From positions 8,413 to 72,412 of the forward strand of contig JAFGPK010000020.1 of assembly GCA_016936235.1 (NCBI GenBank): a stretch of DNA of 64,000 bases, in the 5' to 3' direction. Positions 718 through 48,907 of this stretch are shown here, in pieces (the stretch's first letter is position 1; the number at the start of each line of letters is the position of its first letter). Both the position numbers and the translations under genes were made by a program. The notes under the pieces are model-generated. The model was not told the DNA's origin. It saw nothing but the letters and a program-made list of their open reading frames with translations, and ran no database searches. The DNA comes from Candidatus Fermentibacteraceae bacterium. Lineage in GTDB: Bacteria > Fermentibacterota > Fermentibacteria > Fermentibacterales > JCC-6.

Positions 718-1257
718 CTATGAGCCAAGATAGCGGTCCCGCTCGCTGAATACGCATCCGCAGTAGGGCTGCCGGTACATGCCGGCTTCCCTTGATAGTC
801 TGATGGATTCTCTGTAGAGGTCCGTAAAATCCCTGTAGACGAACTCCACGCCGTGAAGCTCCCCCGCGGCGCCACCGGCCAGCCGGATCAGGGCCTGGTC
901 CTGGTAGGGACTGACTGAGAGAGTGGTTGAGAACCTGGGGATACCCAGCTGCGACGCCCTGGCGGCGGTTGCCGACAGCCGGTCCCGGAAACAGGCGCTG
1001 CACCTGTTCTCCGCATCAAGGAGCATTCTCAGGTTCTCCTCCAGAGGGTAGCCGGCATCCACATCCAGGGGGATTCCCCTGTCGGAGGCGTATTCGGAGA
1101 GGGCCGTCAGCCTCCTCTCCCTCTCCTTCCAGGGATGAATGTTGGGATTGTAGAAGTAGCCGGTAACAGTGAATCCCTCGCCGGACAGGGCCTCGTGCAC
1201 CACCGTCATGCATGGTCCGCAGCATACATGAAGCAGGAGACCCGCCGCGGGGTTCAC
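718..1257 (-). CDS. queH: epoxyqueuosine reductase QueH (DUF208)
   Basis: 179 aa with LLHVCCGPC near the N-terminus and YRQPYCGCVFSE near the C-terminus, the Cys signatures of DUF208/QueH. Its start overlaps the ruvB stop by 4 nt. Confidence 0.85.
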   Translation of the reverse strand: MNPAAGLLLHVCCGPCMTVVHEALSGEGFTVTGYFYNPNIHPWKERERRLTALSEYASDRGIPLDVDAGYPLEENLRMLLDAENRCSACFRDRLSATAARASQLGIPRFSTTLSVSPYQDQALIRLAGGAAGELHGVEFVYRDFTDLYRESIRLSREAGMYRQPYCGCVFSERDRYLGS

Positions 1258-2285
1258 AGGGGCAGCTCCTCCTGGCCCGTGGGTCTGAGCCCCAGATGCC
1301 TGCAGGCCTTGGCAGTGCTCATCCTTCCCCGGCTGGTCCGGTTCAGGAAGCCTGATATGAGAAGGTAAGGTTCGACTACGTCTATCAGAGTATCCTGCTC
1401 CTCGTTCAGCGTCGCGGCCAGGGCCGCGACCCCCACCGGTCCACCCGCATACTGGTCGATTATCACCCTGAGGTACTTCCTGTCCAGCCCGTCCAGCCCA
1501 GCCTCGTCGACCCCGTGTATGTCCATGGCCTCCACCGCCACGTCCTCGGTGACCGTCTCCCTGCCCTCCACCTGGGCGAAATCGCGGACCCTCTTAAGAA
1601 GTCTGTTGCATATCCTGGGGGTGCCCCTGGAGCGAAGGGCTATGGTCTCGGCGCCCCCGCTGGTTATGCTCAGCTTCAGGATACCCGCGGATCTCCTGAT
1701 GATCTCGGCCAGCTCATTGGTCTTGTAGAACTGCATGTGAAGGGAGAGCCCGAATCTGTTCCTGAGGGGGCCCGTGATGAGCCCGGCCCTGGTTGTGGCG
1801 CCTATGACGGTGAATTCCGAAAGGTCCAGCCTCACGGTCCTTGCGTGGGGACCCGGATCGAGCACTATGTCGATCTGGAAATCCTCCATTGCAGGGTACA
1901 GGTACTCCTCCACGATCCTGGGCAGCCTGTGGATCTCGTCGATGAAAAGCACATCACCCTGCTGGAGGTTGGTAAGTATGCCCACCAGGTCCGCGGCCCT
2001 CTCGAGGGCCGGGCCGGAAGAGCAGACAAGACCTGCGTTCATCTCGTTCGACACAATATGGGCAAGCGTGGTCTTTCCAAGACCCGGAGGACCATGGAAC
2101 AGGATGTGGTCCAGAGGCTCTCCCCTTCCGAGGGCCGCCTTTATCGTAATGGCCAGTTTCTGGACGACGGTTTCCTGCCCTATGTACTCGGACAGCAGCC
2201 TGGGCCTCAGGGAGGCGAGGGTGCTCTCCTCGGCAGTCTCCTCAGGCCCCAGCACATCCCCTGAGATCATCGATTCCCTGCTCAA
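1254..2285 (-). CDS. ruvB: Holliday junction branch migration ATPase RuvB
   Basis: 343 aa. Walker A GPPGLGKTTLA and Walker B LFIDEIHRL. Overlaps the ruvA stop by 4 nt. Confidence 0.97.
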   Translation of the reverse strand: MSRESMISGDVLGPEETAEESTLASLRPRLLSEYIGQETVVQKLAITIKAALGRGEPLDHILFHGPPGLGKTTLAHIVSNEMNAGLVCSSGPALERAADLVGILTNLQQGDVLFIDEIHRLPRIVEEYLYPAMEDFQIDIVLDPGPHARTVRLDLSEFTVIGATTRAGLITGPLRNRFGLSLHMQFYKTNELAEIIRRSAGILKLSITSGGAETIALRSRGTPRICNRLLKRVRDFAQVEGRETVTEDVAVEAMDIHGVDEAGLDGLDRKYLRVIIDQYAGGPVGVAALAATLNEEQDTLIDVVEPYLLISGFLNRTSRGRMSTAKACRHLGLRPTGQEELPL

Positions 2286-2881
2286 TTACCGCTCCTGATC
2301 CTCATGGCCCGTTTGACCACTTCGGAGGTCCCGGCATTCTCCTCCAGCTGGCCGCACGCCTGGTCTATGAGACGGTCGGCTTCCCCCAGCGGCACCCCGA
2401 GCTGCCGCAGTACCGCCCTGGCCTCGCTCCTTGGTCCGTCGGCGGTGCCCGAGGTGCCCGCCTCACCGTACATGTTCCTCATCTGCTCCTGCAGACCGGC
2501 GACGATCTGCCTTGCCCTCTTGCTGCCTATGCCTGGAAGGGTTGTAAGGTACTCGCAATCCTCCGACGCGATTGCCGAGGCTATCCTGTCCGGAGGCTGC
2601 TCCAGCGCCTTGACAGCTGCCCGGACCCCCACTCCCGAGACTGAGATGAACTTCTCGAAGAACTCCCTGTCCTTCTCATCGGGAAAACCAACCAGCAGAG
2701 GGACAACCCTGTTTCCCTCCATCTGGAGATGCAGGTAGACGGGCATATCCAGGTGCATCCCGGGAGACACTCTCCTGAGGAAATAACCCGGCGCCAGCAC
2801 GCTGACGACAACGGGCCCACACCTTATCAGCACGGCCGATTCAGCCGTTCTCTCTACCGAGCCCCTTATACTTTCTATCAT
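2282..2881 (-). CDS. ruvA: Holliday junction DNA-binding protein RuvA
   Basis: 199 aa. Starts MIESIRGSV and has the helix-hairpin-helix motif LTTLPGIGSKRARQIV. Lies between ruvC and ruvB. Confidence 0.9.
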   Translation of the reverse strand: MIESIRGSVERTAESAVLIRCGPVVVSVLAPGYFLRRVSPGMHLDMPVYLHLQMEGNRVVPLLVGFPDEKDREFFEKFISVSGVGVRAAVKALEQPPDRIASAIASEDCEYLTTLPGIGSKRARQIVAGLQEQMRNMYGEAGTSGTADGPRSEARAVLRQLGVPLGEADRLIDQACGQLEENAGTSEVVKRAMRIRSGN

Positions 2882-3371
2882 TCCTGTCGCTTTCGTACGC
2901 CGCTATCGCAATGGCCAGCGCATCTGTCACATCATCCGGTTTTATCTCGACGGTTATTCCAAGAAGGTGCCTGACCATGCCTGATACCTGTTCCTTGCTG
3001 GCTCTCCCGTTCCCGGTGACCAGCTTCTTTATCCTGGTTGACGGAAGCGGTACCTGGCGCACGTTCCGCTGCACCGCCGCCAGGCAGAGCACTCCCCTGG
3101 CGTGGGCCATCTTGATGGCCGTCATGGGGTGACTGTAGTGGGCGTAGAGCTTCTCGATCCCCATGGCGCACGGCATGTACCTGTCGATTATCTCCACAAT
3201 GCCCTGGAACAGCTCATCGAGCCTCTCAGGAAGAGGATCGCCTGCCGACGACCGGATGACACCTGCGTCAATGAGATCGATGGTCCCTGGCCGGAAGCGA
3301 AGCACCCCGTAGCCCGTGGTTCCCAGCCCCGGGTCGATCCCCAGGTAAACGGACTCGGGAACCGCAGGCAA
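2841..3371 (-). CDS. ruvC: crossover junction endodeoxyribonuclease RuvC
   Basis: 176 aa. N-terminus YLGIDPGLGTTGYGVL with the catalytic Asp, and C-terminal DVTDALAIAI motif. The 3' end overlaps the ruvA start by 41 nt. Confidence 0.9.
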   Translation of the reverse strand: MPAVPESVYLGIDPGLGTTGYGVLRFRPGTIDLIDAGVIRSSAGDPLPERLDELFQGIVEIIDRYMPCAMGIEKLYAHYSHPMTAIKMAHARGVLCLAAVQRNVRQVPLPSTRIKKLVTGNGRASKEQVSGMVRHLLGITVEIKPDDVTDALAIAIAAYESDRNDRKYKGLGRENG

Positions 3372-4100
3372 TTATTCTTCCTGCATCTCGAAATTCGTGT
3401 GAATGGCCTGAACGTCGTCGCTTTCCTCCAGCGCCTCGAGGAGTTCAATGGTCTTTTCCGCCTCCCTGGAGCTCAGTGTTATGTAATTCTCAGGTTCCTT
3501 CGTCACCTCGGCGCTGTCGGGCACCACTCCGTTCTCCACAAGGGCTTTCATAACATCGAAAACGTCCGACGGCATAGTGGAGGCCACTATAAGGTCATCC
3601 ATCTTCTGGACATCCTCCAGGCCGGCGTCCAGTCCCGCCTCGAGGACCTGCTCCTCGCTGTACTTCGTGCCGTCGATGGTTATCTTGCCCACTCTGTTGA
3701 ACATGTAGGCCACGCTGTTCCTGGATCCCAGATGCCCTCCGTGCTTGGAGAGCAGGTGCCTTACATCAGCCGCGGTCCTGTTCTTGTTGTCGGTCAGCAC
3801 TTCGATGATTATGGCGACTCCCCCCGGACCGTAGGCCTCGTAGATTATCTCTTCGTAGCTTATGCCCTCCAGTTCACCGGTACCCCGTTTGATCGCCCTC
3901 TCTATGTTGTCCGAGGGCATGTTCTGGGACTTCGCCGTCTCCACTGCGACACGAAGCCGGGAATTGGATTCCAGGTCGCCACCACCTTCACGGGCGGCAA
4001 CGGAGATCTCCTTCACCAGCCTGCTGAATACCTTTCCCCTGGCTGCATCGGCTTTCTGCTTCTTGTGCTTGATGCTGCTCCACTTGTTATGTCCTGACAT
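3372..4100 (-). CDS. yebC: YebC/PmpR family DNA-binding transcriptional regulator
   Basis: 242 aa. MSGHNKWSSIKHKK... start and overall YebC (DUF28) pattern. Abuts the ruvC start with zero gap, a common arrangement. Confidence 0.92.
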   Translation of the reverse strand: MSGHNKWSSIKHKKQKADAARGKVFSRLVKEISVAAREGGGDLESNSRLRVAVETAKSQNMPSDNIERAIKRGTGELEGISYEEIIYEAYGPGGVAIIIEVLTDNKNRTAADVRHLLSKHGGHLGSRNSVAYMFNRVGKITIDGTKYSEEQVLEAGLDAGLEDVQKMDDLIVASTMPSDVFDVMKALVENGVVPDSAEVTKEPENYITLSSREAEKTIELLEALEESDDVQAIHTNFEMQEE

Positions 4101-4242: not shown

Positions 4243-4935
4243 TCAGCGCGGCCCGACGCTGCGCAGTATCTCATCGGAATCCCTCACGGCCGATAGAGGG
4301 AGTCCGATATCCGAGCCGTTTATCCTGAAGACATGCTCCTCCGGCATGCAGCCGATGGCGTAGACATCAGCGGACACCACCTGGATGTCCAGGTCGACAC
4401 AGGCCAGGAAATCGTTCCGGTTTACTTCCACTCCCACTGCCACTCCCCTGGCCAGGGCTTTCGCATCGGAAAGGTTCACGGAACCGCCTACCACCTTGAG
4501 CGGGATTCCGTGCTCCATCTTATCGGGAAGGAAGTTCTCCCTGTGCATCCTTACCCCTGTGGATAGAACAAGGCTGGTGGAAAAGGCAGGGAAGATGAAC
4601 CTGTCCCTCCTGGTCTCCGGTTCGTTTTCGGAGAGCCCCCTCTCCCTTCCCGAATACTCCCTGAAGCCTTCCACGATGGAGGAGCTGGATTCCCTGCGGG
4701 AAATCCTCTGATATACGGATACGGTGACATCAACCTTCCAGAAAGGCAGGAACAGGGTTCCAGGTCCTCCAGGTCGCAGGAACTCGATCCGCACCGGACT
4801 GAACCCTTCCCCGAACAACCAGCATCTCCCGCAGTTTCCGCAGTAGAATATCACGTCGCCGGAAAGACCATCAAGGTCGTCGCCGCAGTTCCTGCACCTG
4901 AGCGGTATCAGGACCGGGTCATCAGTATACGACAT
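4243..4935 (-). CDS. zinc-ribbon protein of unknown function, paralogue 3 (soluble)
   Basis: 230 aa. CRNCG-x14-CGNC ribbon at residues ~14-35, then LFLPFWKV motif. No TM segment. ATG overlaps the upstream gene by 14 nt. Confidence 0.6.
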   Translation of the reverse strand: MSYTDDPVLIPLRCRNCGDDLDGLSGDVIFYCGNCGRCWLFGEGFSPVRIEFLRPGGPGTLFLPFWKVDVTVSVYQRISRRESSSSIVEGFREYSGRERGLSENEPETRRDRFIFPAFSTSLVLSTGVRMHRENFLPDKMEHGIPLKVVGGSVNLSDAKALARGVAVGVEVNRNDFLACVDLDIQVVSADVYAIGCMPEEHVFRINGSDIGLPLSAVRDSDEILRSVGPR

Positions 4936-5998
4936 GGTCGCCCCCCTTGCCTTCCATGCCCCTGAGTATCCCTATGAGCCGCCAGGTTCCGAAGGCAAGA
5001 GCGGCCAGGATGAGCAGGAAAACGGGCAGACAGCTTGACCGGGACCCGAAAGAACCGGTTATGTTGAGCTTCCCTCCTATGATTGCATCGAAGGAGAATG
5101 GGAGTACGCCTGCCCAGAAGAGACCCGCAGCAATCGTGATTATCCTCCGGTCACTGCCGGAGGCCGGGAACCGGCCCCTGAGAACGTCGCCGGAACGACC
5201 GTCCACCACGACCTGATAGGAACTTCCGTCACATCTGAAGTCTGTGAGCCACAGAGGGTAGTACACAAGCGCGTCCCGGTATCCCGATATCACGGAGAAT
5301 TCCCATTTCTCCTCCAGGCCGAACCCGACCCCCGACCCCAGTCTCCGTAGATACCTGGCCGTGTGGTCACGGGCCTCCGCCATCGTAACCACGGGATCCA
5401 CGAAGGTGCCTTCCCTCTCCGTCTCATCCTTCAGTATCTCCAGCCCATCGGGAAGGGAATTCCTCTGTATGGCCAGACCCTGGATCGACATCTGGGAATC
5501 TGCTGAAAGTGTGGGAATGCCAAGAGGCTCCAGGTCCGCGCCGCTGATGTTCACGCTGCCGGACAGCTGTATCTCCCTCTCCACCGCCTCGCCGCCGGTC
5601 CTGGTCTTTATCCTTTTTATCACCGTCACAGCATATCCCCCGGATGACTGGCTCTCACAGTCTATTACGGGAATCTCCTTCTCCTCGTATACAGGTTCCA
5701 CGCCAAGGACGTAGCCGTTGACCTGGGCGTTGCAGTGCCAGAATGGAACGTAGTAGAGGGTGGGCCGGCTGACCCTCGCCCTTTCGACGCCGCGGGGATT
5801 CTTGCTTTCAAGTTCCCTCCTCACCGCCCTCAGCACATCCACAGTGGATACGGAGGCGGGAAGAACGTACTTCCTGACTGCATTCGAGAGAACCAGGCTC
5901 GAGGAGCAGCTTGGACAGACCGTATGGGTGTCGCCTTCCCGGATCTCGAGAGGTCCAGCGCACGAGGGGCATTTCAGGGCTACCGTCACCCTGCCCAT
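4922..5998 (-). CDS. zinc-ribbon membrane protein of unknown function, paralogue 2
   Basis: 358 aa. CPSC-x14-CPSC ribbon, LYYVPFWH motif, later YYPLW...VVVDGRSGDVL, and two C-terminal hydrophobic helices. ATG shares 1 nt with the stop of paralogue 1. Confidence 0.65.
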   Translation of the reverse strand: MGRVTVALKCPSCAGPLEIREGDTHTVCPSCSSSLVLSNAVRKYVLPASVSTVDVLRAVRRELESKNPRGVERARVSRPTLYYVPFWHCNAQVNGYVLGVEPVYEEKEIPVIDCESQSSGGYAVTVIKRIKTRTGGEAVEREIQLSGSVNISGADLEPLGIPTLSADSQMSIQGLAIQRNSLPDGLEILKDETEREGTFVDPVVTMAEARDHTARYLRRLGSGVGFGLEEKWEFSVISGYRDALVYYPLWLTDFRCDGSSYQVVVDGRSGDVLRGRFPASGSDRRIITIAAGLFWAGVLPFSFDAIIGGKLNITGSFGSRSSCLPVFLLILAALAFGTWRLIGILRGMEGKGGDHVVY

Positions 5999-6690
5999 CA
6001 GTTCTTCCCCCGTGTCTTGAAGAAGAAGAACGCAACAACCACCAGAATCGCGGAGCCGTAGGACCAGATCTTGTGGATCCAGGAGAAATCAAGACTGATG
6101 CTCAGCAGGTAGAGAGGAACAGAGACAGCCAGGCCAATGAGCAGGGTCTTGAGGAACAGCTTTCCAAGCTCATCCCCGGCTTCGGAATTCATACTCTCCA
6201 TCGGAGGCTCGGTGAGCATCTTGCCGGATACGCCGTCGACAAGGACACCCTCTCCGTAGCCCTGCAGTTTCAGCATGACCACGAAGAAGGGGTGCAGGAC
6301 CAGCCTTCCCCCGATCTGGTCGACCAGTTCCCTGTCTATGGGAATTATCTCTCCAGGCTCGGCCATGCTCTCGTCGAAGACCTTTCTGTCCCCCGCCGGT
6401 GGACGGTAGGAATCCAGCTCCTGCCATGGCTGGCTGAAACATGGGATCAGTTCCCTGGATGAGGAATCGCCGGTTTCCAGAAAGGGGAAATACTTTCTCT
6501 CCATGGACATGACCATCCCTGGAGGAAAGAGTCTCTGAACGTACTCCTCAGAGACGGCGGTGCCGACCATGGCCGGCGTGCCTGCGGGAGTGCAGACCAT
6601 TATCCTCGCGTCGCAGTAGGGGCACCTGAGAAAGAGGTCGCTCTCCATCACTAGCTGTTCCGAGCCGCACTGGGAGCAGTTCACCTTCAT
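5998..6690 (-). CDS. zinc-ribbon membrane protein of unknown function, paralogue 1
   Basis: 230 aa. CSQCG-x14-CPYC ribbon, KYFPFLE motif, HPFF...VLVDGVSGKML, and two C-terminal TM helices. ATGA overlap with the upstream kinase-like gene. Confidence 0.65.
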   Translation of the reverse strand: MKVNCSQCGSEQLVMESDLFLRCPYCDARIMVCTPAGTPAMVGTAVSEEYVQRLFPPGMVMSMERKYFPFLETGDSSSRELIPCFSQPWQELDSYRPPAGDRKVFDESMAEPGEIIPIDRELVDQIGGRLVLHPFFVVMLKLQGYGEGVLVDGVSGKMLTEPPMESMNSEAGDELGKLFLKTLLIGLAVSVPLYLLSISLDFSWIHKIWSYGSAILVVVAFFFFKTRGKN

Positions 6691-8153
6691 TCCGAAACCC
6701 CTCCGGAACAGGAGATGCTTCTCTTCCAGGCCAGCCGGACCACGGCCGATGCAACGGTATCGAGCTTAACGGGAAGACCGACAAAGACCACACGGGGACC
6801 GCTGTCGGAAGGGGACCTGAGGGATTCGTCGACCAGAACGACGGATCCGTTCACCGGCGATCCCGGGCCTTCCCAGCTCTCCCCCTCGAACATGTAGTGG
6901 TCGTAATCGGTAACGACCAGCAGGCAGCCGGTGGAACCGGGCTCCCCGTCAACCTCGCATCCGATGGAGTGCAGTATTCCAGCGATCTCTTCTCTCATGG
7001 TCCCTTCGATGCCCTTTATCATGACCGCGGGTACCGCATCACCCTCTGTCTCGCTCTCTATCCCTTCCGCGGCGGGAAGGTACACGGTGAATACCGAACC
7101 CCGTCCAAGCTCTGAATCCACAGTCACATAGCCCCCGCATCCGTTGACTATGGAATATACGGCTGACAGGCCCAGCCCGTACCTGTTCCTGCCGGTGGAG
7201 AAGAAGGGATCGAAGATCCTTGTCAGATCATCGTCCGGTATTCCTGACCCGTTGTCCGATACGGTTATCATTACATAGTCACCTCCGGAGACCTGAGGCG
7301 TGTCGTTCCTAAGCAGAACTCTGCAAGCGGTGAGGGTCACCCTTCCCCCGTCTCCCGCAGCCTGTCCGGCATTCATGAGCAGGTTCACCAGCACCTGTTC
7401 GAACAGTCCCACGGGAATTCCCGCAAAACCCGTCCGGTCAGGGTAGGCCAGCTCCAGTTCCACATCGGGGTACGCGGACGCGAACATCATTGAAGAGGAC
7501 CGGATAACCTTGCCCGACTGACACACATCTGCCTTCCCGGAACTCCCGGGGTCAGCGGTCAGGCTCGTTATCATTCCGCTTATCCTGCCGATCAGCTTCC
7601 TGGATTCCCTTACATGGCGCAGGACGGCGCCCCTGTCCCCGTGCTCACGGCTTATGCCCGACAGCCTGGCGAGGAGGACCGTGAGAAGATCATTGACATT
7701 CCCGGCTATCCCACGGGCCAGGACCTTCATGGCGTCCGATTTCTGGCTGTTGCGAAGTGAGCGGTCGAGCAGCCATCTGGCGCTTACATCCCTGAAGACG
7801 ACGCCTTCGATGGAATCAGCGTTCCTGTCTCCACCGCGGGACAGGAATACGGTGCCGCTCACCAGCACATCGTCACCGCCTGATGGAACGAGGACCGTCG
7901 CTCCCGGGAAATGGAAGAAACCGTCCTTCCTCAGCACTTCATCCATCCCCTCGTACATAGGTCTGCGGGTGTTCCTCTCCACCAGAGTACAGACTTCCCA
8001 AAGATCTTTGCCCAGGTCTTTTCCGGCACTCCTGCCCGTAAGACGCTCAGCCTCGGGATTCATGTAGGATACCATTCCATCGCCGTCCGCCAGGACAACG
8101 GCGTCCGACACCGCATCCAGGATGGTGGTGATATCCCGGAAGCCGTCCATCAT
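6687..8153 (-). CDS. PAS-domain sensor histidine-kinase homologue with degenerate H-box
   Basis: 488 aa. N-terminal PAS (ILDAVSDAVVLADGDGMVSYMNPEAERLTG). HATPase_c N box VNLLMNAGQA, G1 DNGSGI, F IFDPFF and G2 GLGLS are all present. The H-box reads LARGIAGNVNDLLT where this subfamily normally has LAGGIAHDFNNLLT. Confidence 0.85.
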   Translation of the reverse strand: MMDGFRDITTILDAVSDAVVLADGDGMVSYMNPEAERLTGRSAGKDLGKDLWEVCTLVERNTRRPMYEGMDEVLRKDGFFHFPGATVLVPSGGDDVLVSGTVFLSRGGDRNADSIEGVVFRDVSARWLLDRSLRNSQKSDAMKVLARGIAGNVNDLLTVLLARLSGISREHGDRGAVLRHVRESRKLIGRISGMITSLTADPGSSGKADVCQSGKVIRSSSMMFASAYPDVELELAYPDRTGFAGIPVGLFEQVLVNLLMNAGQAAGDGGRVTLTACRVLLRNDTPQVSGGDYVMITVSDNGSGIPDDDLTRIFDPFFSTGRNRYGLGLSAVYSIVNGCGGYVTVDSELGRGSVFTVYLPAAEGIESETEGDAVPAVMIKGIEGTMREEIAGILHSIGCEVDGEPGSTGCLLVVTDYDHYMFEGESWEGPGSPVNGSVVLVDESLRSPSDSGPRVVFVGLPVKLDTVASAVVRLAWKRSISCSGGVSE

Positions 8154-8168
8154 GCGATCGCGGATCCT

Positions 8169-10355
8169 CTACTCACTGCCGCCGATAATGACCAGTTCCC
8201 TCGTCCGCCTCAGGCCGGGGGCGTCAAGAACTGCGAAATAAACGCCTCCCGGTACCCTCGAGCCGCCGCCGTCCCTGCAGTCCCACAGAACGGTGTGGGT
8301 TCCGGTGGACACGATCTGCTCCGTGAGATCGGCCACTTTCCTGCCTGAGAGATCGTACACGGCCAGACTCGCCAGTCCCTGGGCATCAGAGGATACCGTA
8401 ACCGGGATCACCGCACGGACCGAGGCAGGGTTGGGGCTGAAGTGCCCCAGGGACGTTGTGCCGGTGTGGCTCTCGCCCTGAGGGATACCGGTGCTGGTTA
8501 TCTGGGCTGCGGCGGGTTCCGAAGGCCATCCGGGTCCGAATTCGGGATCCATGGCGACTGCCCTGAACCAGAAATCTCCCCCCTCGTGGGTGGAGACGGT
8601 ATAGGAGTTCGTGGGGACCTCCAGGTCCAGGAAGTCGTTCTCCTCCCAGACCTCCACCTTGATATCGTCTATGTAGAGATCCGAAGAACTGCCGCTGGTG
8701 GCCCACCGGAAGCTTAGGGTATCCCCCTGCCATTCGTCCAGTTCGTGTATGTTAAGCCGCCAGGTGGGATCGTTCCTGGTGAAGGTCTGCAGGTAGAACC
8801 AGTTCTGACCTCCGTCGGTGGATACCTCGATGCTTCCCTGGCATGAACCGCTGGGGATGTTGTAGTAGGCCCAGAAGCTGAGCCTTCCGCCGCCGTCCTC
8901 GGGAATGGCCACCGTCTCGGTCCAGGTCATGCTGCCGGTTCCCCCTGAGAGGTAGGCGCTCGAGGGAGAATGGTAATGTGATGTCGTGGTGGACCAGTTG
9001 CTGAAATTGAAGGGACCGCCGGCTCCGTTGTCATCCAGGACCACCTGATATCCTGAGAGTTCCTGAAGGGCGTAGGAATCGGCATCCGGTACACTGCTCC
9101 AGTTGATGGTGAATGGAGTGGAGACGGCGCCTATCGGATCAATAACGGGAGTCCCGGGCACATGGGGATCGTAGGGACACCCGGCCAGGAAGGCGGTCAC
9201 CAGGTAGCTCCTCAGATTCCTGCGAGATAGCTTGACAACCTCCGTAAGTGAGGGCCAGAATCCGGCGAAATCGCCGCCGGTCTCATGGTTCCAGCTCATT
9301 GCCCCGTAGAGTCCGTAGGAATGGTCCCTTGTATTGCCGGAGCTGTAATAGAGGATCTGGGCGGCTGGACCGTGGTGGTCACCGGTGCCCCACCGGGACA
9401 TGATCTCCCCGTGGGTCGAGTACTCGGCAGCATGGGTGGTGGGCGAATCGGTATAACCCCACGGGTAGATCAGTATGTTGCCGTAGCAATGTGTAGAGTG
9501 CATCTCTGCGGGCAGGTGGTCCTGCCAGAAGGCGTCGATGTTTGAGGTTTCCGGTTCGCTCAGGGGACCCGTGCCTCTGTAGGTCTCGCTGTTCGGATCG
9601 CCGCTGGAGCCCGTTCCCCCCCAGGCCACGGACCAGTTCCTGTTCAGGTCGATGCCGCTCCCGAGGGTCCAGTTCATGTTCTTCCTGTGCATGCCGCCCC
9701 CGCCGGGGGACTGCTGCTGGTTGTAGACGTAACCGTCTACGTTGTTGCATGGAAGGCACCATATCTCCCTGTTATCCAGCAGCCAGGTGGCCTGAAGGCC
9801 GCAGAATCCGTTCCTGCCGTAGTTGTCGCAGAGCCACAGCATGAAGAACCTGATATTGCGCATTGATGCCGGTTCGCGGGCGTGGATCAGACCATCGTAC
9901 CATACGTTGGGCAGTGCGGGGTCGTCGTACCAGAAATCGGTGTTGGACGAGATCTTAACCACCGTCTGCGGTCTTCCCTGATAGGTGTTCCCGATGGATG
10001 TGGGAGCGCTGGTGATCGAGGGGTAGGTGTCGTGCAGGTCTTCCAGCCAGGCGGACAGTTCGTCCCAGGTCAGATACCCCCCCATGCTCCTGCCTTCGCA
10101 CCTTCTCTGATAGAACCTCTCCATGTCGTCTATCCTGGTGGTGAAGGGGATACCGGCCCTCATCAGAGCGTTGTAAGCATCCTCGTCAACCACACAATCG
10201 ATGGAGCCGTCATCGTAGACATGTACGATGTCGCAACCCGCGGCAACGATCCTCTCCGCTTCCGAATCGTTGGAGGGTGTCACGCCGAGCAGCGAGTACC
10301 TCTCCGCAGCGAGAACGGATGCGGCCGCCAGAAGAACAAAAAGCATCTTTCTCAT
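8169..10355 (-). CDS. secreted M14-family zinc carboxypeptidase with Por/T9SS-type C-terminal sorting domain
   Basis: HxxE zinc motif in GLIHAREPAS. Signal peptide MRKMLFVLLAAASVLAA. The last ~80 aa (LAVYDLSGRKV...GGVYFAVL...LVII) look like a T9SS/FlgD-Ig-like CTD. Start placed at ATG 10355 (GGAGAAGG upstream); the ORF opens at 10379. Confidence 0.82.
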   Translation of the reverse strand: MRKMLFVLLAAASVLAAERYSLLGVTPSNDSEAERIVAAGCDIVHVYDDGSIDCVVDEDAYNALMRAGIPFTTRIDDMERFYQRRCEGRSMGGYLTWDELSAWLEDLHDTYPSITSAPTSIGNTYQGRPQTVVKISSNTDFWYDDPALPNVWYDGLIHAREPASMRNIRFFMLWLCDNYGRNGFCGLQATWLLDNREIWCLPCNNVDGYVYNQQQSPGGGGMHRKNMNWTLGSGIDLNRNWSVAWGGTGSSGDPNSETYRGTGPLSEPETSNIDAFWQDHLPAEMHSTHCYGNILIYPWGYTDSPTTHAAEYSTHGEIMSRWGTGDHHGPAAQILYYSSGNTRDHSYGLYGAMSWNHETGGDFAGFWPSLTEVVKLSRRNLRSYLVTAFLAGCPYDPHVPGTPVIDPIGAVSTPFTINWSSVPDADSYALQELSGYQVVLDDNGAGGPFNFSNWSTTTSHYHSPSSAYLSGGTGSMTWTETVAIPEDGGGRLSFWAYYNIPSGSCQGSIEVSTDGGQNWFYLQTFTRNDPTWRLNIHELDEWQGDTLSFRWATSGSSSDLYIDDIKVEVWEENDFLDLEVPTNSYTVSTHEGGDFWFRAVAMDPEFGPGWPSEPAAAQITSTGIPQGESHTGTTSLGHFSPNPASVRAVIPVTVSSDAQGLASLAVYDLSGRKVADLTEQIVSTGTHTVLWDCRDGGGSRVPGGVYFAVLDAPGLRRTRELVIIGGSE

Positions 10356-10444
10356 ATTCACCTTCTCCGACTGATACATGTTGATTATTATTCAAGTCTC
10401 AATACACGATTATTACATAATGAATATATGCAGGGGAGGTTTCC
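10356..10444. promoter_or_regulatory. AT-rich divergent intergenic region (candidate promoters for the peptidase operon and hutU)
   Basis: ttgattattattcaagtctcaatacacgattattacataatgaatatatg is markedly AT-rich against the GC-rich background. It contains TTGATT/TTCAAG and TACATAAT-like hexamers. No exact -35/-10 pair could be fixed. Confidence 0.35.
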
Positions 10445-12460
10445 ATGTCAGAGGGTTTCAGGGAACAGGTCAGGAGGGGCATTCCGGAATCCATCCCTCC
10501 GATGCCTCCGGATCTGGAGGGCGTCAGCCACGCTCCATCGAGACCGGATGTGCTCACCCCGGGCGAGAAGAGGCTGGCCCTGCGGAACGCCCTGCGTTAC
10601 TTCCCGCGGAAGTGGCATCCCGAACTTGCGCCCGAGTTCGCCCGAGAGCTGGAGACCGACGGCAGGATATACATGCGGAGGTTCAGGCCCGTCTACGAGA
10701 TGAAGGCCAGGCCAATCGGAGACTACCCGGCCCGCACACCCCAGGCGGCGGCGATCATGCTGATGATACAGAACAACCTGGACAGGGCCGTGGCCCAGCA
10801 TCCCCAGGAGCTGATAACCTACGGCGGCAACGGCACGGTCTTCCAGAACTGGGCCCAGTACCTGCTTGCCATGAAATACCTGTCGGAGATGACCGCGGAG
10901 CAGACCCTCGTACTCTATTCCGGTCATCCTCTGGGGCTGTTCCCATCCCACCCCGACGCCCCCAGGGTGGTGGTCACCAACGGTATGGTGGTGCCCAACT
11001 ACAGCTCCAGGAAGGACTACGACAGGATGGCGGCCCTGGGAGTCACCTCATACGGTCAGATGACCGCCGGGAGTTTCATGTACATCGGCCCCCAGGGTAT
11101 CGTCCACGGAACAACCATCACCATGCTCAACGCAGGCAGGAAGTACCTGGGTCTCTCACCTGAACAGGACCTGGCCGGAAGGCTCTTCGTGACATCGGGC
11201 CTTGGAGGCATGAGCGGGGCCCAGGCCAAGGCCTCGGTGATAGCGGGGGCGGTGGGTGTGATAGCCGAGATCAACCCGGGGGCTGTCAGGACGAGGCACG
11301 AGCAGGGCTGGCTCATGGAAGCCGAGGACGACCTGGACAGGGTCCTTCTTCGCGCGGAGAAGGCCGTGAAGTCCGGAGAGCCGCTGTCTCTGGGATACAC
11401 CGGCAATGTGGTGGACCTGTGGGAGAGGCTTGCCGCCGAAGGGGTGCGGGTGGACCTTGGAAGCGATCAGACGTCGCTCCACAACCCGTACTCCGGCGGC
11501 TACTACCCGGTCGGGCTGTCAATGGAGAGGTCCAACCGCATGATGGTGGACGACCCGGAGGGGTTCAGGGAGATGGTGCGCGAATCCCTGCGGAGGCAGG
11601 TGAAGGCTATCAACAGGCTGAACGGAAGGGGCATGTCCTTCTGGGACTACGGGAACGCCTTCCTCCTGGAGGCGTCCAGGGCAGGGGCCGAGGGAATCCT
11701 GAGGCCCGACGGCTCCTTCTCCTACCCTTCCTACGTCGAGGACATTATGGGCCCGTTGTGTTTCGATTACGGATTCGGTCCCTTCAGGTGGGTCTGCACC
11801 TCGGGCGACCCCGACGACCTTCGAAGGACCGACAGAATCGCCGGAAGCGTGCTTGAGGAGATGTCCCTTACCGCGGATCCTGAGATCAGGCAGCAGATGC
11901 TGGACAATGTCCGATGGATCGGGCAGGCCGGGGAGAACAGGCTGGTGGTGGGGTCCCAGGCGAGGATACTCTACGCCGACCGAAGGGGAAGGATGAATAT
12001 AGCCGAGGCTTTCAACAGGGCCATCGCCGGCGGCGATATAAGCGCCCCCATAGTGCTTGGAAGGGACCACCACGATGTGTCCGGAACTGATTCCCCTTAC
12101 AGGGAGACGGCCAATATCAGTGACGGCAGCATGTTCACTGCGGACATGGCGGTCCAGAACGTCATAGGCGATTCATTCAGGGGCGCCACCTGGGTCTCGC
12201 TCCACAACGGCGGGGGTGTAGGCTGGGGCGAGGTGATCAACGGTGGATTCGGCCTGCTCCTTGACGGATCGGAGGAAGCCGGGACCAGGGCCGCGGCCAT
12301 GCTCGACTGGGACGTCTCCAACGGGCTTGCCCGGAGGTCCTGGGCCAGGAACCCCGGGGCAGTCTACGCGGCGAGGAAAGCAATGGAGGACCGGCCCGGC
12401 ATGAGGATAACGTTGCCTGAAACAGCCGACGACGAACTGATAGACAAGTTTTTCATCTGA
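10445..12460 (+). CDS. hutU: urocanate hydratase (long ~670-aa form)
   Basis: 671 aa. ITYGGNGTVFQNW, GLGGMSGAQ and HNGGGVGWGE motifs. GGGGAGG Shine-Dalgarno just upstream of the ATG. Confidence 0.92.
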   Translation: MSEGFREQVRRGIPESIPPMPPDLEGVSHAPSRPDVLTPGEKRLALRNALRYFPRKWHPELAPEFARELETDGRIYMRRFRPVYEMKARPIGDYPARTPQAAAIMLMIQNNLDRAVAQHPQELITYGGNGTVFQNWAQYLLAMKYLSEMTAEQTLVLYSGHPLGLFPSHPDAPRVVVTNGMVVPNYSSRKDYDRMAALGVTSYGQMTAGSFMYIGPQGIVHGTTITMLNAGRKYLGLSPEQDLAGRLFVTSGLGGMSGAQAKASVIAGAVGVIAEINPGAVRTRHEQGWLMEAEDDLDRVLLRAEKAVKSGEPLSLGYTGNVVDLWERLAAEGVRVDLGSDQTSLHNPYSGGYYPVGLSMERSNRMMVDDPEGFREMVRESLRRQVKAINRLNGRGMSFWDYGNAFLLEASRAGAEGILRPDGSFSYPSYVEDIMGPLCFDYGFGPFRWVCTSGDPDDLRRTDRIAGSVLEEMSLTADPEIRQQMLDNVRWIGQAGENRLVVGSQARILYADRRGRMNIAEAFNRAIAGGDISAPIVLGRDHHDVSGTDSPYRETANISDGSMFTADMAVQNVIGDSFRGATWVSLHNGGGVGWGEVINGGFGLLLDGSEEAGTRAAAMLDWDVSNGLARRSWARNPGAVYAARKAMEDRPGMRITLPETADDELIDKFFI

Positions 12461-42229: not shown

Positions 42230-43357
42230 CTATTCCTGTTTCTCTCCACATTCCGGGCAGAATTTCGAGTTCGACGGAACATCCGCACCGCATTTCCCGC
42301 ACTTCTTTCCGCCGTCGAGCTTTGCGCCGCACTCAGGGCAGAACTTCGCGCCGGGCTCCGCGGCGGCACCGCATGCCGGGCACTGGATCCCGAGCGCTTT
42401 GCCGCACTCAGGGCAGAACTTGCCCTGGGGGACGCTCTTGCCGCAGAACGGGCAGTTGACCAGAGGGGCTCCCCCGCCCTGGCCTCCGCCCTGGCCCCCT
42501 GCGGCCATGGTCTGGCCCATCATGTTGGCCATGGTCATACCCATCCCCAGCCCCGCACCCATGCCGACACCGGCACCGGCGGCTCCGCCTCCGCCTTCGT
42601 TGGCGGCTGCATCGCCCATGGCGGTCGCTGTCTTGAAGCGGAGGTACTGGTTCATATCGCCCAGCGCCCCCATGGCGCTTCTCTCGTCTATTCTGGCCTG
42701 GACCTCCTCCGGAGGAGTGATGGCCTGTACGTAGAAATCCACAAGCTGAATGCCGTACTTGCCGAAATCATCTCCCAGCCTTGATTTCGCCAGGGTCCCG
42801 ATCTCGTCGTAGTACTGGGCCAGATCGAAGATGGTCTCCAGGGTCTCTCCAAGAAGGTCGGCCAGTCTGGAGATTATCATGCCCTTGAGGAATCCCTCTA
42901 TCTCATCGGTGCTGAATCTTCCTTCAGTGCCTACGACCTTGTTGATGAACAGCTGGCTCTGCTCCACCTTCATCGAGAAGCTCCCGAAGGCCCGGAGACG
43001 CACCATGGCAAGTTCCTTGTCCCTGAATATTATGGGTTCCTTGGTGCCCCATTTCATGTCGGTGAACGTCTTCTTGTTGACGTAGAACACCGTTGCCCTG
43101 AACGGGGAATCCTTACCGGAGAAGAGGGTACTCACCAGTCCTGCCAGTATGGGTATGTTCTCCGTGGTGATGGTGTGCCTGCCTGGACCCAGAACGTCCA
43201 TGGCCTTGCCATCCCTGAAGAACACAGCATCCTGGCTCTCTCTTACGACAACCTGGGTTCCCAGGCGGAACTCGCCGGAACCCCCCTCCGGTATCCTGTG
43301 GACGATCTCTTTTCCGCTGTCGTCCATCCACTCTACTATCTCCATTTTTTTGAACAT
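42230..43357 (-). CDS. SPFH/Band-7 domain protein with Gly-rich linker and three C-terminal zinc ribbons (YdjI/COG4260-like)
   Basis: 375 aa. N-terminal SPFH fold pattern, Gly/Ala/Met-rich linker, then CPFCG-x9-CPECG, CPACG-x10-CPECG and CGKCG-x10-CPECG. AAGGAGAGG SD upstream. Confidence 0.83.
   Translation of the reverse strand: MFKKMEIVEWMDDSGKEIVHRIPEGGSGEFRLGTQVVVRESQDAVFFRDGKAMDVLGPGRHTITTENIPILAGLVSTLFSGKDSPFRATVFYVNKKTFTDMKWGTKEPIIFRDKELAMVRLRAFGSFSMKVEQSQLFINKVVGTEGRFSTDEIEGFLKGMIISRLADLLGETLETIFDLAQYYDEIGTLAKSRLGDDFGKYGIQLVDFYVQAITPPEEVQARIDERSAMGALGDMNQYLRFKTATAMGDAAANEGGGGAAGAGVGMGAGLGMGMTMANMMGQTMAAGGQGGGQGGGAPLVNCPFCGKSVPQGKFCPECGKALGIQCPACGAAAEPGAKFCPECGAKLDGGKKCGKCGADVPSNSKFCPECGEKQE
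42233..42460 (-). repeat. three tandem zinc-ribbon coding units (75-nt period)
   Basis: The 21-mer gccgcactcagggcagaactt (reverse complement encodes KFCPECG) occurs identically at 42326-42346 and 42401-42421. A third, synonymously diverged copy lies near 42245-42268. Confidence 0.8.
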
Positions 43358-43379: not shown

Positions 43380-43904
43380 CTAGTCAACCGGCTGGTTCTT
43401 CTCCAGGTCGATCATCAGTTCGCTGCGCTCGGACATCTTCTTGCTGAACTCAACAAGGATGTCAACCATATTGTCTATCGGCTGCCGGAGATCCGAACCC
43501 GCCGCTGCGGCAGCCTGCAGGGCTCCCAGTGATTCCTCCAGCTCCTCGATGTCCTCAACGAGGCTAATATCGAAGGCGTAAAGCTTGTCCAGCTCGTCCT
43601 CACGAACCTTATGCATGTCGAACCAGCCCCTGTATCCCCTGGAGGCGAACCTGATCTCATCGGTCACCCTCTCCAGCCTCTTCAGTATCCTGTCAAAGTC
43701 GGTGACCGACTTCAGCGCATCAGGACCCCTGAGGCCGGCGGGTATCTCGCTGATATCGGTTCTCAGGCTGTCGAGCCTGCTCACAAGGGTCATCCTGAAA
43801 AGGTGGTCGTTGTCGCGCCTCTCCTCCTTGCTCTTGTAACCCTTGTAGCCCGGGATGAGGCGAATCGCCTTCTCCAGGAATCCCAGTTCTCTTCCCTCGC
43901 TCAT
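43380..43904 (-). CDS. helical (coiled-coil-like) protein of unknown function, partner of the SPFH gene
   Basis: 174 aa, rich in Glu/Arg/Leu heptad-like stretches. N-terminal LIPGYKGYKSKEERRDND. AAAGGAAA upstream of the ATG. Stop is 22 nt before the SPFH start. Confidence 0.6.
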   Translation of the reverse strand: MSEGRELGFLEKAIRLIPGYKGYKSKEERRDNDHLFRMTLVSRLDSLRTDISEIPAGLRGPDALKSVTDFDRILKRLERVTDEIRFASRGYRGWFDMHKVREDELDKLYAFDISLVEDIEELEESLGALQAAAAAGSDLRQPIDNMVDILVEFSKKMSERSELMIDLEKNQPVD

Positions 43905-47144: not shown

Positions 47145-47486
47145 ATGAAATGCCCCAACTGCGGAGCCCAGATCGGAACCTTCCAGGGGGAGACCCTCAC
47201 CTGTGAATACTGCAGGTCGACCTACCATGCAAGTGAATTCGACAAGAGCTGGAAGGGTACGCCGGCGGAACCCTCGGTAACGGAGGTTCACCATTACCAT
47301 CATCAGGAAGCTCCGGACAGGCTCTCCATGGGAATGGGATGCCTCGTCTTCCTGTTCTTCCCCCTTGGGTGGATAATCTACTTCCTCTACCGCGACTCGT
47401 CTCCGTCGAAGGCCAGGACCGCCATGATAATCGCCGCTGTGATGACTGTGCTTTTCCTGATAGGTATTGCCGGCGGGGGAAGATAG
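47145..47486 (+). CDS. small zinc-ribbon membrane protein
   Basis: 113 aa. CPNCG-x13-CEYC ribbon, His-rich linker (HHYHHQ), two TM helices. Confidence 0.65.
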   Translation: MKCPNCGAQIGTFQGETLTCEYCRSTYHASEFDKSWKGTPAEPSVTEVHHYHHQEAPDRLSMGMGCLVFLFFPLGWIIYFLYRDSSPSKARTAMIIAAVMTVLFLIGIAGGGR

Positions 47487-47539
47487 GTGCCTTCCGCGCC
47501 TGCATCTCCTCGAACAGGCCCACCGGCCCGGGAGGTCAC

Positions 47540-48907
47540 ATGAAAGAGAAATTCGATTTCGACAGAAGGGTCCTGATGTGCGGGAACTGCGGCGCCCCTC
47601 TGGAGACGGGGTTCGCCGGGGGTACGGTCAGGTGCGAGTACTGCGGAACGTCGAACCTGTTCCTGCCCCGGAAGGAAGAGCCTGTTGAGCCCCTGGCGGC
47701 CGCCGTGGAGATGGACGAGGAGACCAGGATGGAAATGCTCCGGCGCCAGGACGGAAGGCAGCCGGAGATGCCCCGGGAGCTGAAGCCCCTCATCTCAGGC
47801 GGGGAGCTTGCCCCCTGGAAGGTGCAGGAGGCCCTCTCCCTCTGGAGTTCCACCTGCAGGGAACTCTCCACCGGCAGTGATTACTCCGACGCGGAACTCC
47901 TCTACTACCTGACCATCATCCTCTCCAACCACTACTCGGGGAAGGAGGACGACCTCAGGGAGCGGGCCCTGTACGAAAGCGCCCTGGAGGTCCTCACCCT
48001 TCCACGACACCGCCAGATAATGCGCGGGTTCCTGGCCAGGAACGCGGCCCTTGAGGGGGACACCGCGGCCGCCAGGAGATGGCTGGCTCCCTGCAATCCC
48101 CGTTCCGAGGACCTGGAGACCGACAGCAGCTACAGGGTCTCCATGGCGGACATACTCACGGTGGAGGGGGACTGGGAAGGGGTCCTGAAACTCCTGGGAC
48201 AGGATTTCGATGAGGTCCCGATAACGTCTGCGCTGGACGGCAAGGCCATAGTCCAGAGGGCCAACGCCCTTGAGAGATCGGGCAGGACCGGGGAGGCGGC
48301 AAGGCAGCTTTACCTCTTCATGGAGGTCAACGGCAGCCTGGGCAGGAAAGCCCTTAGGAGCATAGTATCGGTATACTCGGATTCCAATCTGCAGGTCTGC
48401 CCACTGAGCCTTCCGGAAGCCGAGGAGAAGTATCACGAGAGCAGGGGGCACGCAGCCTCCGGCATGCAGAATCCCGGATGCTTCGGTCAGAGTTTCGCCG
48501 TAACCGGCGTCTTCATGATCGCCCTCGGTCTGTTCCTGGGCCCGGTCCTGGGCCGGGCCGGGGCCGGGATCCCGCTGGGTGTCAAGATCATGCTCTTCGT
48601 CATGGGCGGCATCTTCCTGGCAATAGGGGTCCGTCAGATCAGGGCGGGAAGGAAGGCTTCGAGACTTGTCACCAGGGGCGTGGAGGGGACCGGCACGGTC
48701 CAGAGCATGCAGCCCACCGCTTGGACCATCAACGATGTCCCCAAGTACCTGCTGGAACTGAAGGTGGAGCTGCCCGGCGGCAGATCCTTCACTGCCCGCA
48801 CGAAGATGACCATTCCGGAGAGCGAGAAGGAGAGGTTCTCGCCCGGGGCGCAGGTCACGGTGATGGCTGATCCCGAAGACCCCTCCAGCATTACGGTGAT
48901 GGACTGA
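47540..48907 (+). CDS. zinc-ribbon / helical-repeat / two-TM / DUF3592-like protein
   Basis: Start at ATG 47540 with GGAGG 5 nt upstream (the ORF opens at 47339). CGNCG-x14-CEYC ribbon, TPR-like helical region, two TM helices, then a beta-rich C-terminal domain (GTGTVQSM...VTVMADPEDP). Confidence 0.65.
   Translation: MKEKFDFDRRVLMCGNCGAPLETGFAGGTVRCEYCGTSNLFLPRKEEPVEPLAAAVEMDEETRMEMLRRQDGRQPEMPRELKPLISGGELAPWKVQEALSLWSSTCRELSTGSDYSDAELLYYLTIILSNHYSGKEDDLRERALYESALEVLTLPRHRQIMRGFLARNAALEGDTAAARRWLAPCNPRSEDLETDSSYRVSMADILTVEGDWEGVLKLLGQDFDEVPITSALDGKAIVQRANALERSGRTGEAARQLYLFMEVNGSLGRKALRSIVSVYSDSNLQVCPLSLPEAEEKYHESRGHAASGMQNPGCFGQSFAVTGVFMIALGLFLGPVLGRAGAGIPLGVKIMLFVMGGIFLAIGVRQIRAGRKASRLVTRGVEGTGTVQSMQPTAWTINDVPKYLLELKVELPGGRSFTARTKMTIPESEKERFSPGAQVTVMADPEDPSSITVMD

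Follow-up and report, generated by a model that had tools for sequence, protein, structure and literature searches.

The closest described counterpart of the genes treated here is the pspA-ydjGHI operon of Bacillus subtilis, which is sigma-W dependent (PMC8581546). Ravi et al. assign to YdjG, also called SamG, a pair of zinc ribbons, an uncharacterised NTF2-like domain related to that of YpeB and a transmembrane (TM) segment, and to YdjI (SamI) a band-7 domain with a C-terminal zinc ribbon (PMC11237479). Deletion of ydjG or ydjH abolishes the membrane foci of YdjI and PspA, and bacterial two-hybrid assays pair YdjG with YdjH, and YdjH with both YdjI and PspA; the ydjG and ydjH mutants also have defects in cell shape and peptidoglycan synthesis that are not seen in ydjI and pspA mutants (PMC8581546). 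SamGH has been proposed to be a stress-sensor complex that is restrained by SamI and that signals by an unknown route (bioRxiv 10.64898/2026.02.06.704340). The subject of this report is a set of three consecutive genes, called A, B and C below, on the minus strand of a 64,000-nucleotide stretch of DNA (the window) from a Candidatus Fermentibacteraceae bacterium (assembly GCA_016936235.1, contig JAFGPK010000020.1, positions 8,413 to 72,412). Profile comparisons give good support to B, and less strongly A, as homologs of YdjG/SamG, and the three genes remain linked in four or more bacterial phyla.

Homology to YdjG/SamG

An initial annotation of this DNA had left the three proteins without a recognisable family. 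With regard to curated models this stands, as no Pfam or NCBIfam family beyond the ribbon covers A, B or C; both collections give only sub-threshold ribbon matches with these proteins, and only ribbon matches with YdjG itself. The kinship with an experimentally studied protein had, however, escaped notice. It was the gene context that pointed to it: in Ignavibacteria a Band_7_1 plus SHOCT gene is found upstream of A, hence the comparison with the B. subtilis operon. The exact B. subtilis sequence, verified as 'PspA localization factor YdjG, YDJG_BACSU', was used. The B-family hidden Markov model (HMM) matches it in hmmsearch with E 5.5e-16 (about 1e-6 when scaled to the 1.84-billion-protein library described below), in three collinear segments that represent the ribbon, the second ribbon through YIPFW, and LLPVWMVSYDY...MNGQTGKVVGKPP. 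With hhalign, B and YdjG align with a probability of 96.7% (E 4e-10) over 236 columns, residues 5-283 of B against 51-314 of YdjG, i.e. from the second ribbon of YdjG to the PP motif ahead of its TM segment. For A the corresponding value is 87% and concerns the N-terminal part, and the A-family HMM also matches the C-terminal block of YdjG. Protein C is linked to YdjG through B and, judged by profile similarity, is a TM-less offshoot of the YdjG/SamG stock.

That the three proteins are paralogs, as had been proposed from their motifs, is borne out by hhalign, with 98.8% for A and B (E 1e-16), 95.4% for C and B (E 2e-8) and 74% for A and C; pairwise BLASTP among the three gives marginal matches only. 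These values support a common ancestry of the module that runs from the ribbon to the first strand. Homologs number 86 for B, 69 for A and 48 for C, nearly all from metagenome-assembled genomes (MAGs) of Candidatus Aegiribacteria/Fermentibacteria, an origin that assigns the window to Fermentibacterota, and among them the Pro, Trp and Gly residues of the motifs and the ribbon cysteines are invariant. All four ribbon cysteines are invariant in the A and C families and the second pair in the B family, where the first pair is missing only from three N-terminally truncated sequences. Invariant positions in the three families are occupied by Cys, Pro, Gly or aromatic residues only, a pattern that suggests a scaffolding role and not an enzymatic one.

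The family is a large one. An exhaustive HMMER search with the B profile, in a library of 1.84 billion representative proteins with clusters at 50% identity, returns 4226 clusters with E<=1e-3, of which 1084 have E<=1e-10. The number of these matches, together with the presence of the trio across lineages, rules out a lineage-specific open reading frame artefact, which the initial annotation had considered as a possibility were the trio to be missing from related genomes. Two of the B-related sequences, P0155 and P0283 from ENA contigs, carry a Ser/Thr protein kinase and an AAA_16 domain N-terminal to the B-like region. These may be real fusions or gene-calling chimeras; they were considered as a functional lead, and no clue was gained from them.

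What fold underlies the non-ribbon part? The AlphaFold2 (AF2) model made from the B alignment, with a predicted local distance difference test score (pLDDT) of 78, consists of the ribbon, a helix and a beta-hairpin of about 30 residues that carries YYVPFW, followed by a second helix, three strands with YYPLW...VVVDG, and the two TM helices; the combination of a helix and long beta-hairpins thus occurs twice. A sequence-profile search of the PDB with the B family returns zinc-ribbon noise only, and Pfam does not report PepSY in the trio even at E<=1. The highest Foldseek matches of the B model in the PDB are pore-forming toxins and porins, at probabilities of 0.07 or less; they reflect the long beta-hairpins, and a reading of B as a pore former was rejected. 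In BFVD the model has two confident Foldseek matches, giant-virus proteins of Yasminevirus (E 6e-8) and Edafosvirus (E 3e-6) that are labelled 'DnaJ-like subfamily C member 3', and from these model comparisons a YdjG-like fold may also be present in Klosneuvirinae.

Conservation of the gene order and the SPFH partners

A scan with the B profile over one genome per GTDB species yielded 80 loci, the open reading frames of which were then searched with the A, B and C HMMs. Of 84 sources, 76 have A, B and C in this order on one strand; in the remaining eight the contig breaks off within the cluster. Represented among the loci are Fermentibacteria, Ignavibacteria/Ignavibacteriota, MAGs labelled 'Bacteroidetes' or Chlorobi, Anaerolineales/Chloroflexi and Acidobacteriota; the metagenome loci L001, L085, L087 and L089 also hold the trio, and C follows B in all related loci. 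The neighbourhood survey that had been suggested along with the initial annotation thus bears out the trio as a conserved set. One arrangement differs: in L001 (128-4273) A is followed by a tRNA_edit (YbaK-like) gene, two tandem B paralogs and then C, from which it appears that B can be duplicated and the cluster interrupted.

The survey also brought out two conserved partners across lineages that the initial annotation had not mentioned, an SPFH protein with a Band_7_1 domain and a helical protein of about 170 amino acids. In Ignavibacteria-type loci the Band_7_1 plus SHOCT gene lies directly upstream of A and on the same strand in all 36 loci that have upstream sequence, and in 18 of these 36 it is preceded by a gene for a helical protein of 176 amino acids. 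In L087 the gene for a 169-amino acid protein, a Band_7_1 plus DZR gene, A, B and C are contiguous. Both partners are encoded in the window (Table 1). The SPFH protein there matches Band_7_1 (PF13421) with E 1.4e-60 and DZR with E 3e-20, and is 50% identical to its Ignavibacteria counterpart (E 1e-89) and 49% identical, over the full length, to that of L087; for the 174-amino acid protein the identities are 36% (E 1e-21) and 40%, respectively. Proteins A, B and C of L087 share about 28-33% identity with those of the window. In no fewer than two distant lineages, therefore, the five genes make up a single operon, and in this genome they are divided between two loci; the SPFH protein is a predicted cargo or partner of an A-B-C platform.

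Further observations concern the pair itself. The C-terminal region of the SPFH protein of the window has three or four zinc ribbons, and the two genes are flanked by YceG/MltG and an AMP-binding enzyme. The sole family match of the 174-amino acid protein is a sub-threshold one to NCBIfam LIMLP_15305 (Leptospira), and a PDB profile search and PADLOC gave coiled-coil noise only. The anti-phage defence-system models of PADLOC have no match in A, B, C, the SPFH protein or the protein encoded upstream of A.

Architecture of the trio

The three ribbon genes are consecutive on the minus strand, as originally described, with overlaps of 4 nt (ATGA) between A and the kinase-like gene upstream of it, 1 nt (TGATG) between A and B, and 14 nt between B and C. 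These overlaps suggest that A, B and C are translationally coupled and would be made in stoichiometric amounts.

Table 1. Coordinates in the window of the trio, the gene upstream of it and the SPFH gene pair
Feature	Position	Strand	Description
Kinase-like protein	6687-8153	-	488 aa, soluble; PAS, degenerate DHp region, HATPase_c
Protein A	5998-6690	-	230 aa; ribbon at residues 5-26 (nt 6613-6678); short YdjG-like paralog
Protein A, TM helices	6013-6147	-	residues 182-226; two, C-terminal
Protein B	4922-5998	-	358 aa; ribbon at residues 10-31 (nt 5906-5971); well-supported full-length YdjG/SamG homolog
Protein B, TM helices	4967-5134	-	residues 289-344; two, C-terminal
Protein C	4243-4935	-	230 aa; ribbon at residues 14-35 (nt 4831-4896); soluble paralog, without TM helices
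SPFH protein	42230-43357	-	375 aa; Band_7_1, Gly-rich low-complexity linker, C-terminal double zinc ribbons
Helical protein	43380-43904	-	174 aa; invariant N-terminal IPGYxGY; gene upstream of SPFH gene

The motifs are present much as first described, with some corrections. Each protein has a CxxC-x14-CxxC ribbon (C5/C8/C23/C26 in A, C10/C13/C28/C31 in B and C14/C17/C32/C35 in C); the spacing of 14 residues that had been given holds between the cysteines in all three, but when counted after the Gly of CSQCG it is 13. The first aromatic-Pro block is likewise common to the three, with YFPFL at residue 67 of A, YVPFW at 83 of B and FLPFW at 62 of C, but the distance of 40-55 residues from the ribbon that had been assigned to it does not apply to C, where it is about 27. 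The second block lies ahead of the TM helices in A (residue 132, LHPFF...VLVDGVSGKML) and B (residue 246, YYPLW...VVVDGRSGDVL), the two proteins in which it had been noted; C has one as well, the overlooked FIFPAF at 113-118, and this is invariant across the C family. The alpha+beta domain that comes after the ribbon thus has at its core two conserved beta-strands of the type aromatic-x-Pro-aromatic-Trp/Phe, together with a VDGxxG turn.

Hydropathy agrees with the earlier account of two C-terminal TM helices in A and B and none in C, and places the segments at 182-200 and 208-226 of A and at 289-307 and 326-344 of B. The AF2 model of B is in accord with this, with helices at 281-307 and 324-352. 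In one C-family homolog, a protein of 266 amino acids in L089 (2590-3390), a hydrophobic C-terminal stretch can be seen by eye, and C may thus not be soluble in every lineage.

Proposed role and alternatives

How might these proteins function together? The preferred reading, with a rough probability of 0.58, is that the trio is a variant of the YdjG/SamG type, a membrane-anchored platform that docks an SPFH protein and has a role in membrane and envelope integrity. Its function as an SPFH docking or sensing platform has moderate support, from homology and gene context. A and B would form a membrane-anchored hetero-oligomer by way of their ribbon/alpha+beta domains and TM hairpins, and the soluble C would join them as a peripheral subunit. 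The ribbon domains are predicted to be cytoplasmic because of the zinc ribbons themselves and because Arg-rich segments flank the TM hairpin on both sides. The platform would dock the anchorless Band_7_1 SPFH protein and its 174-amino acid partner on the inner face of the membrane, in parallel to what YdjG/YdjH do in B. subtilis for YdjI/SamI and, through YdjI/SamI, for PspA, and it would take part in sensing or maintaining membrane and envelope integrity. The Aegiribacteria clade would have acquired, at the operon's head, a soluble PAS/HATPase protein that may regulate the platform or serve as its read-out. The initial annotation had envisaged an uncharacterised membrane complex or signalling module. 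The first part of this is supported, as the strong conservation of two membrane-anchored proteins and one that is soluble in this genome as a unit fits a hetero-oligomeric membrane complex; the kinase-like gene, on the other hand, is no conserved part of it.

Several points weigh against the platform reading. The SPFH pair of the window is 36 kb from the trio, and the link between them is drawn from other lineages; in the Chloroflexi and Acidobacteriota loci there is no SPFH gene within flanks of about 7 kb. Protein C matches YdjG in the ribbon only, and its AF2 model (pLDDT 38) is unusable. The B model has no Foldseek match in the PDB at E<=0.001, which leaves a PepSY/NTF2-like fold unconfirmed. 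No TPM_phosphatase domain is found in A, B, C or the 174-amino acid protein, nor among the called neighbours in L087, L085 and L003, and PspA is absent from the immediate neighbours of the trio and of the SPFH pair as well as from the genes listed for related loci. In B. subtilis the direct two-hybrid contact with YdjI and PspA is that of YdjH, not YdjG (PMC8581546), and since neither YdjH nor PspA was found in this module, a docking role of YdjG-like proteins alone is unproven.

Could the trio instead be a self-contained membrane complex unrelated to SPFH proteins, for example a regulator of cell-wall synthesis or a membrane-protein chaperone, with the Band_7_1 adjacency a matter of loose co-regulation? 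The trio does stand alone in Chloroflexi, Acidobacteriota and Fermentibacteria loci, it has other recurrent neighbours (DUF362 in L087-L089, PLDc_2 in L085), and the shape and peptidoglycan defects of the ydjG and ydjH mutants, which the ydjI and pspA mutants do not share (PMC8581546), would also fit such a complex. This alternative is nevertheless unlikely: in L087, as in 36 Ignavibacteria-type loci, the SPFH gene and A-B-C lie tightly side by side in one orientation, and homologs of YdjG are found in an SPFH-containing operon of Bacillus (PMC8581546), all of these lineages being very distant from one another; the genome of the window, too, keeps both gene sets.

A bolder form of the platform reading is doubtful as well. 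Here A-B-C, the Band_7_1 SPFH protein and the 170-amino acid protein would constitute an ancient and widespread five-gene membrane-surveillance module without PspA or YdjH, of which the Bacillus pspA-ydjGHI operon would be a derived offshoot and to which Aegiribacteria would have recruited a PAS pseudo-histidine-kinase.

Quite unlikely is a single signalling module in which the trio, as a membrane complex, senses a stimulus and controls the kinase-like protein encoded upstream. The 4-nt overlap with A speaks for it, as do 15 further Aegiribacteria-type loci where full-length copies of the kinase-like gene lie directly upstream of A. A soluble PAS protein would also need a membrane partner in order to receive envelope signals, and SamGH has been proposed to signal in B. 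subtilis (bioRxiv 10.64898/2026.02.06.704340). The protein itself, however, argues otherwise. Its HATPase_c domain is a clear one (PF02518, E 1e-21), with N box, G1, F and G2 motifs visible in an alignment with CckA (5idj), but Pfam, which finds PAS and HATPase_c, does not find HisKA. Where CckA has the H-box LAGGVAHDFNNLL, the kinase-like protein has LARGIAGNVNDLL, with Gly in place of the phospho-acceptor His; among 15 orthologs His is found at this position in three, and G, A, D, Y, Q or S in the other 12. There is no adjacent response regulator. The distribution is also narrow. A position immediately upstream of A is seen in 18 of 32 Fermentibacteria sources, all within the Aegiribacteria-type clade, and the gene is missing beside the trio in deeper Fermentibacteria (L003, where glycosyltransferase genes take its place, and L020-L032) and in the Ignavibacteria, Chloroflexi and Acidobacteriota loci. 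The kinase-like protein appears to be a histidine kinase on its way to becoming a pseudokinase, and its gene is a lineage-specific, apparently degenerating addition to an older module and no core component, contrary to its earlier inclusion with the trio. The C-terminal 120 or so residues of the protein have no Pfam match.

Least of all do the zinc-ribbon proteins appear to act on DNA as accessories of recombination and repair. Zinc ribbons can bind nucleic acids, and downstream of C a YebC-RuvC-RuvA-RuvB cluster is present both in the window and in about 29-30 of the 32 Fermentibacteria sources. This most improbable reading was rejected because the synteny does not extend beyond one phylum (0 of 52 loci in other lineages have the YebC cluster). 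Between C and yebC, moreover, lie 142 nt that include a promoter-like site; A and B are integral to the membrane, and their homolog YdjG has a role in membrane stress (PMC8581546).

Flanking genes

The YebC-RuvC-RuvA-RuvB genes are at 1254-4100 (minus strand) of the window, and QueH is next in related loci. No terminator follows C. A scan of the window for promoters and terminators gave counts within the expectation from shuffled sequence, and Rfam gave no RNA family in the whole window. Upstream of the trio, an M14 carboxypeptidase and a divergent urocanase (8169-12460) are syntenic across Fermentibacteria and not elsewhere. The stop codon of the M14 peptidase gene is 15 nt from the start of the kinase-like gene, and with so short a gap the operon may begin at about 10.4 kb.

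Genes that come after C vary among the related loci. In L038, from an Acidobacteriota MAG, C is directly followed (6696-7868) by an extracytoplasmic function (ECF) sigma factor with Sigma70_r2, r4_2 and ECF matches and a zf-HC2 anti-sigma factor. This single case fits an envelope-stress context and recalls the sigma-W control of pspA-ydjGHI. A DUF362 gene is found after C in L087 (4352-5449), L088 (2643-3740) and L089 (3449-4597), and a PLDc_2 gene, phospholipase D/cardiolipin synthase-like, in L085 (7627-8775).

Elsewhere in the window, two open reading frames on the plus strand, one of 113 codons (47145-47486) and a longer one whose middle part is helical (47339-48907), also combine CxxCG-x(12-14)-CxYC ribbons with TM segments. 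Both lack matches to Pfam families and to the HMMs of A, B and C. Membrane proteins headed by zinc ribbons seem to be common in this genome.

Significance

To our knowledge, studies of YdjG/SamG have been confined to B. subtilis. Its non-ribbon domain, for which Pfam and NCBIfam both lack a model, defines a family that exceeds 1000 clusters at 50% identity. Several phyla have the YdjG-type family in the form of a fixed A-B-C triplet, and the triplet is tied genomically to YdjI-type SPFH proteins, not to PspA or YdjH. This provides a broader, testable framework for the question of how anchorless SPFH proteins get to the membrane, and simpler candidate systems in which stress sensing of the SamG type can be dissected. 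Thousands of proteins that now go by 'zinc ribbon domain-containing', 'RpoP' or 'S27E' also gain a functional lead from it, and it argues for a family model. The findings are thus of relevance to research on SPFH proteins, PspA and envelope stress and to the annotation of a large unmodelled family, and they do not overturn current views. If the five-gene module with its recruited pseudokinase were true, it would reveal a cytoplasmic output route of SamG-type sensors.

Comparison with known systems

The '...VVDGxxGxVL' hairpin of the trio presumably resembles the PepSY consensus, which is taken as a lead only. PepSY domains are usually extracytoplasmic, whereas the trio domain is predicted to be cytoplasmic.

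The SPFH-NfeD systems (QmcA-YbbJ, FloT/YuaG-YuaF) offer a likeness in arrangement, as there too an SPFH gene lies beside that of a dedicated membrane partner thought to organise or anchor the SPFH protein. NfeD proteins, however, combine several N-terminal TM segments with a C-terminal OB-fold and lack a zinc ribbon, A, B and C have no NfeD match in Pfam or NCBIfam, and the Band_7_1 proteins have no membrane anchor of their own.

With PspB/PspC and PspA of Escherichia coli the likeness is conceptual, in that small proteins embedded in the membrane bring a soluble effector to its inner face, and the same parallel has been drawn for SamGHI by the authors of that work (bioRxiv 10.64898/2026.02.06.704340). 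There is no relation in sequence or domains, the Pfam models give no sign of PspB, PspC or PspA within the trio or beside it, and the protein recruited here would be an SPFH protein.

Closest is the PspA-YdjGHI system. YdjG/SamG shares with the trio its N-terminal CxxC...CxxC ribbon and alpha+beta domain and, with A and B, the membrane anchor at the C-terminus, B being collinear with YdjG, and the YdjG motifs YIPFW and LLPVW...NGQTGKVVGKPP parallel the aromatic-Pro blocks of the trio. The SPFH protein of the window, with Band_7_1, a low-complexity linker and C-terminal ribbons, resembles YdjI/SamI as the latter is described in the literature (PMC8581546, PMC11237479, bioRxiv 10.64898/2026.02.06.704340). 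The differences are nonetheless several. Three paralogs, one long, one short and one soluble, stand in place of a single YdjG; A, B and C have one ribbon each where YdjG has two, and in A and B a hairpin of two TM helices replaces the single TM segment. A helical partner of about 170 amino acids is added beside the trio-linked SPFH protein, and in this genome the SPFH pair is unlinked from the trio, at a distance of 36 kb. Lastly, the coupling with YdjG appears in the literature as a feature of Firmicutes (PMC11237479), whereas the trio is found in Fermentibacteria, Ignavibacteria, Chloroflexi and Acidobacteriota.

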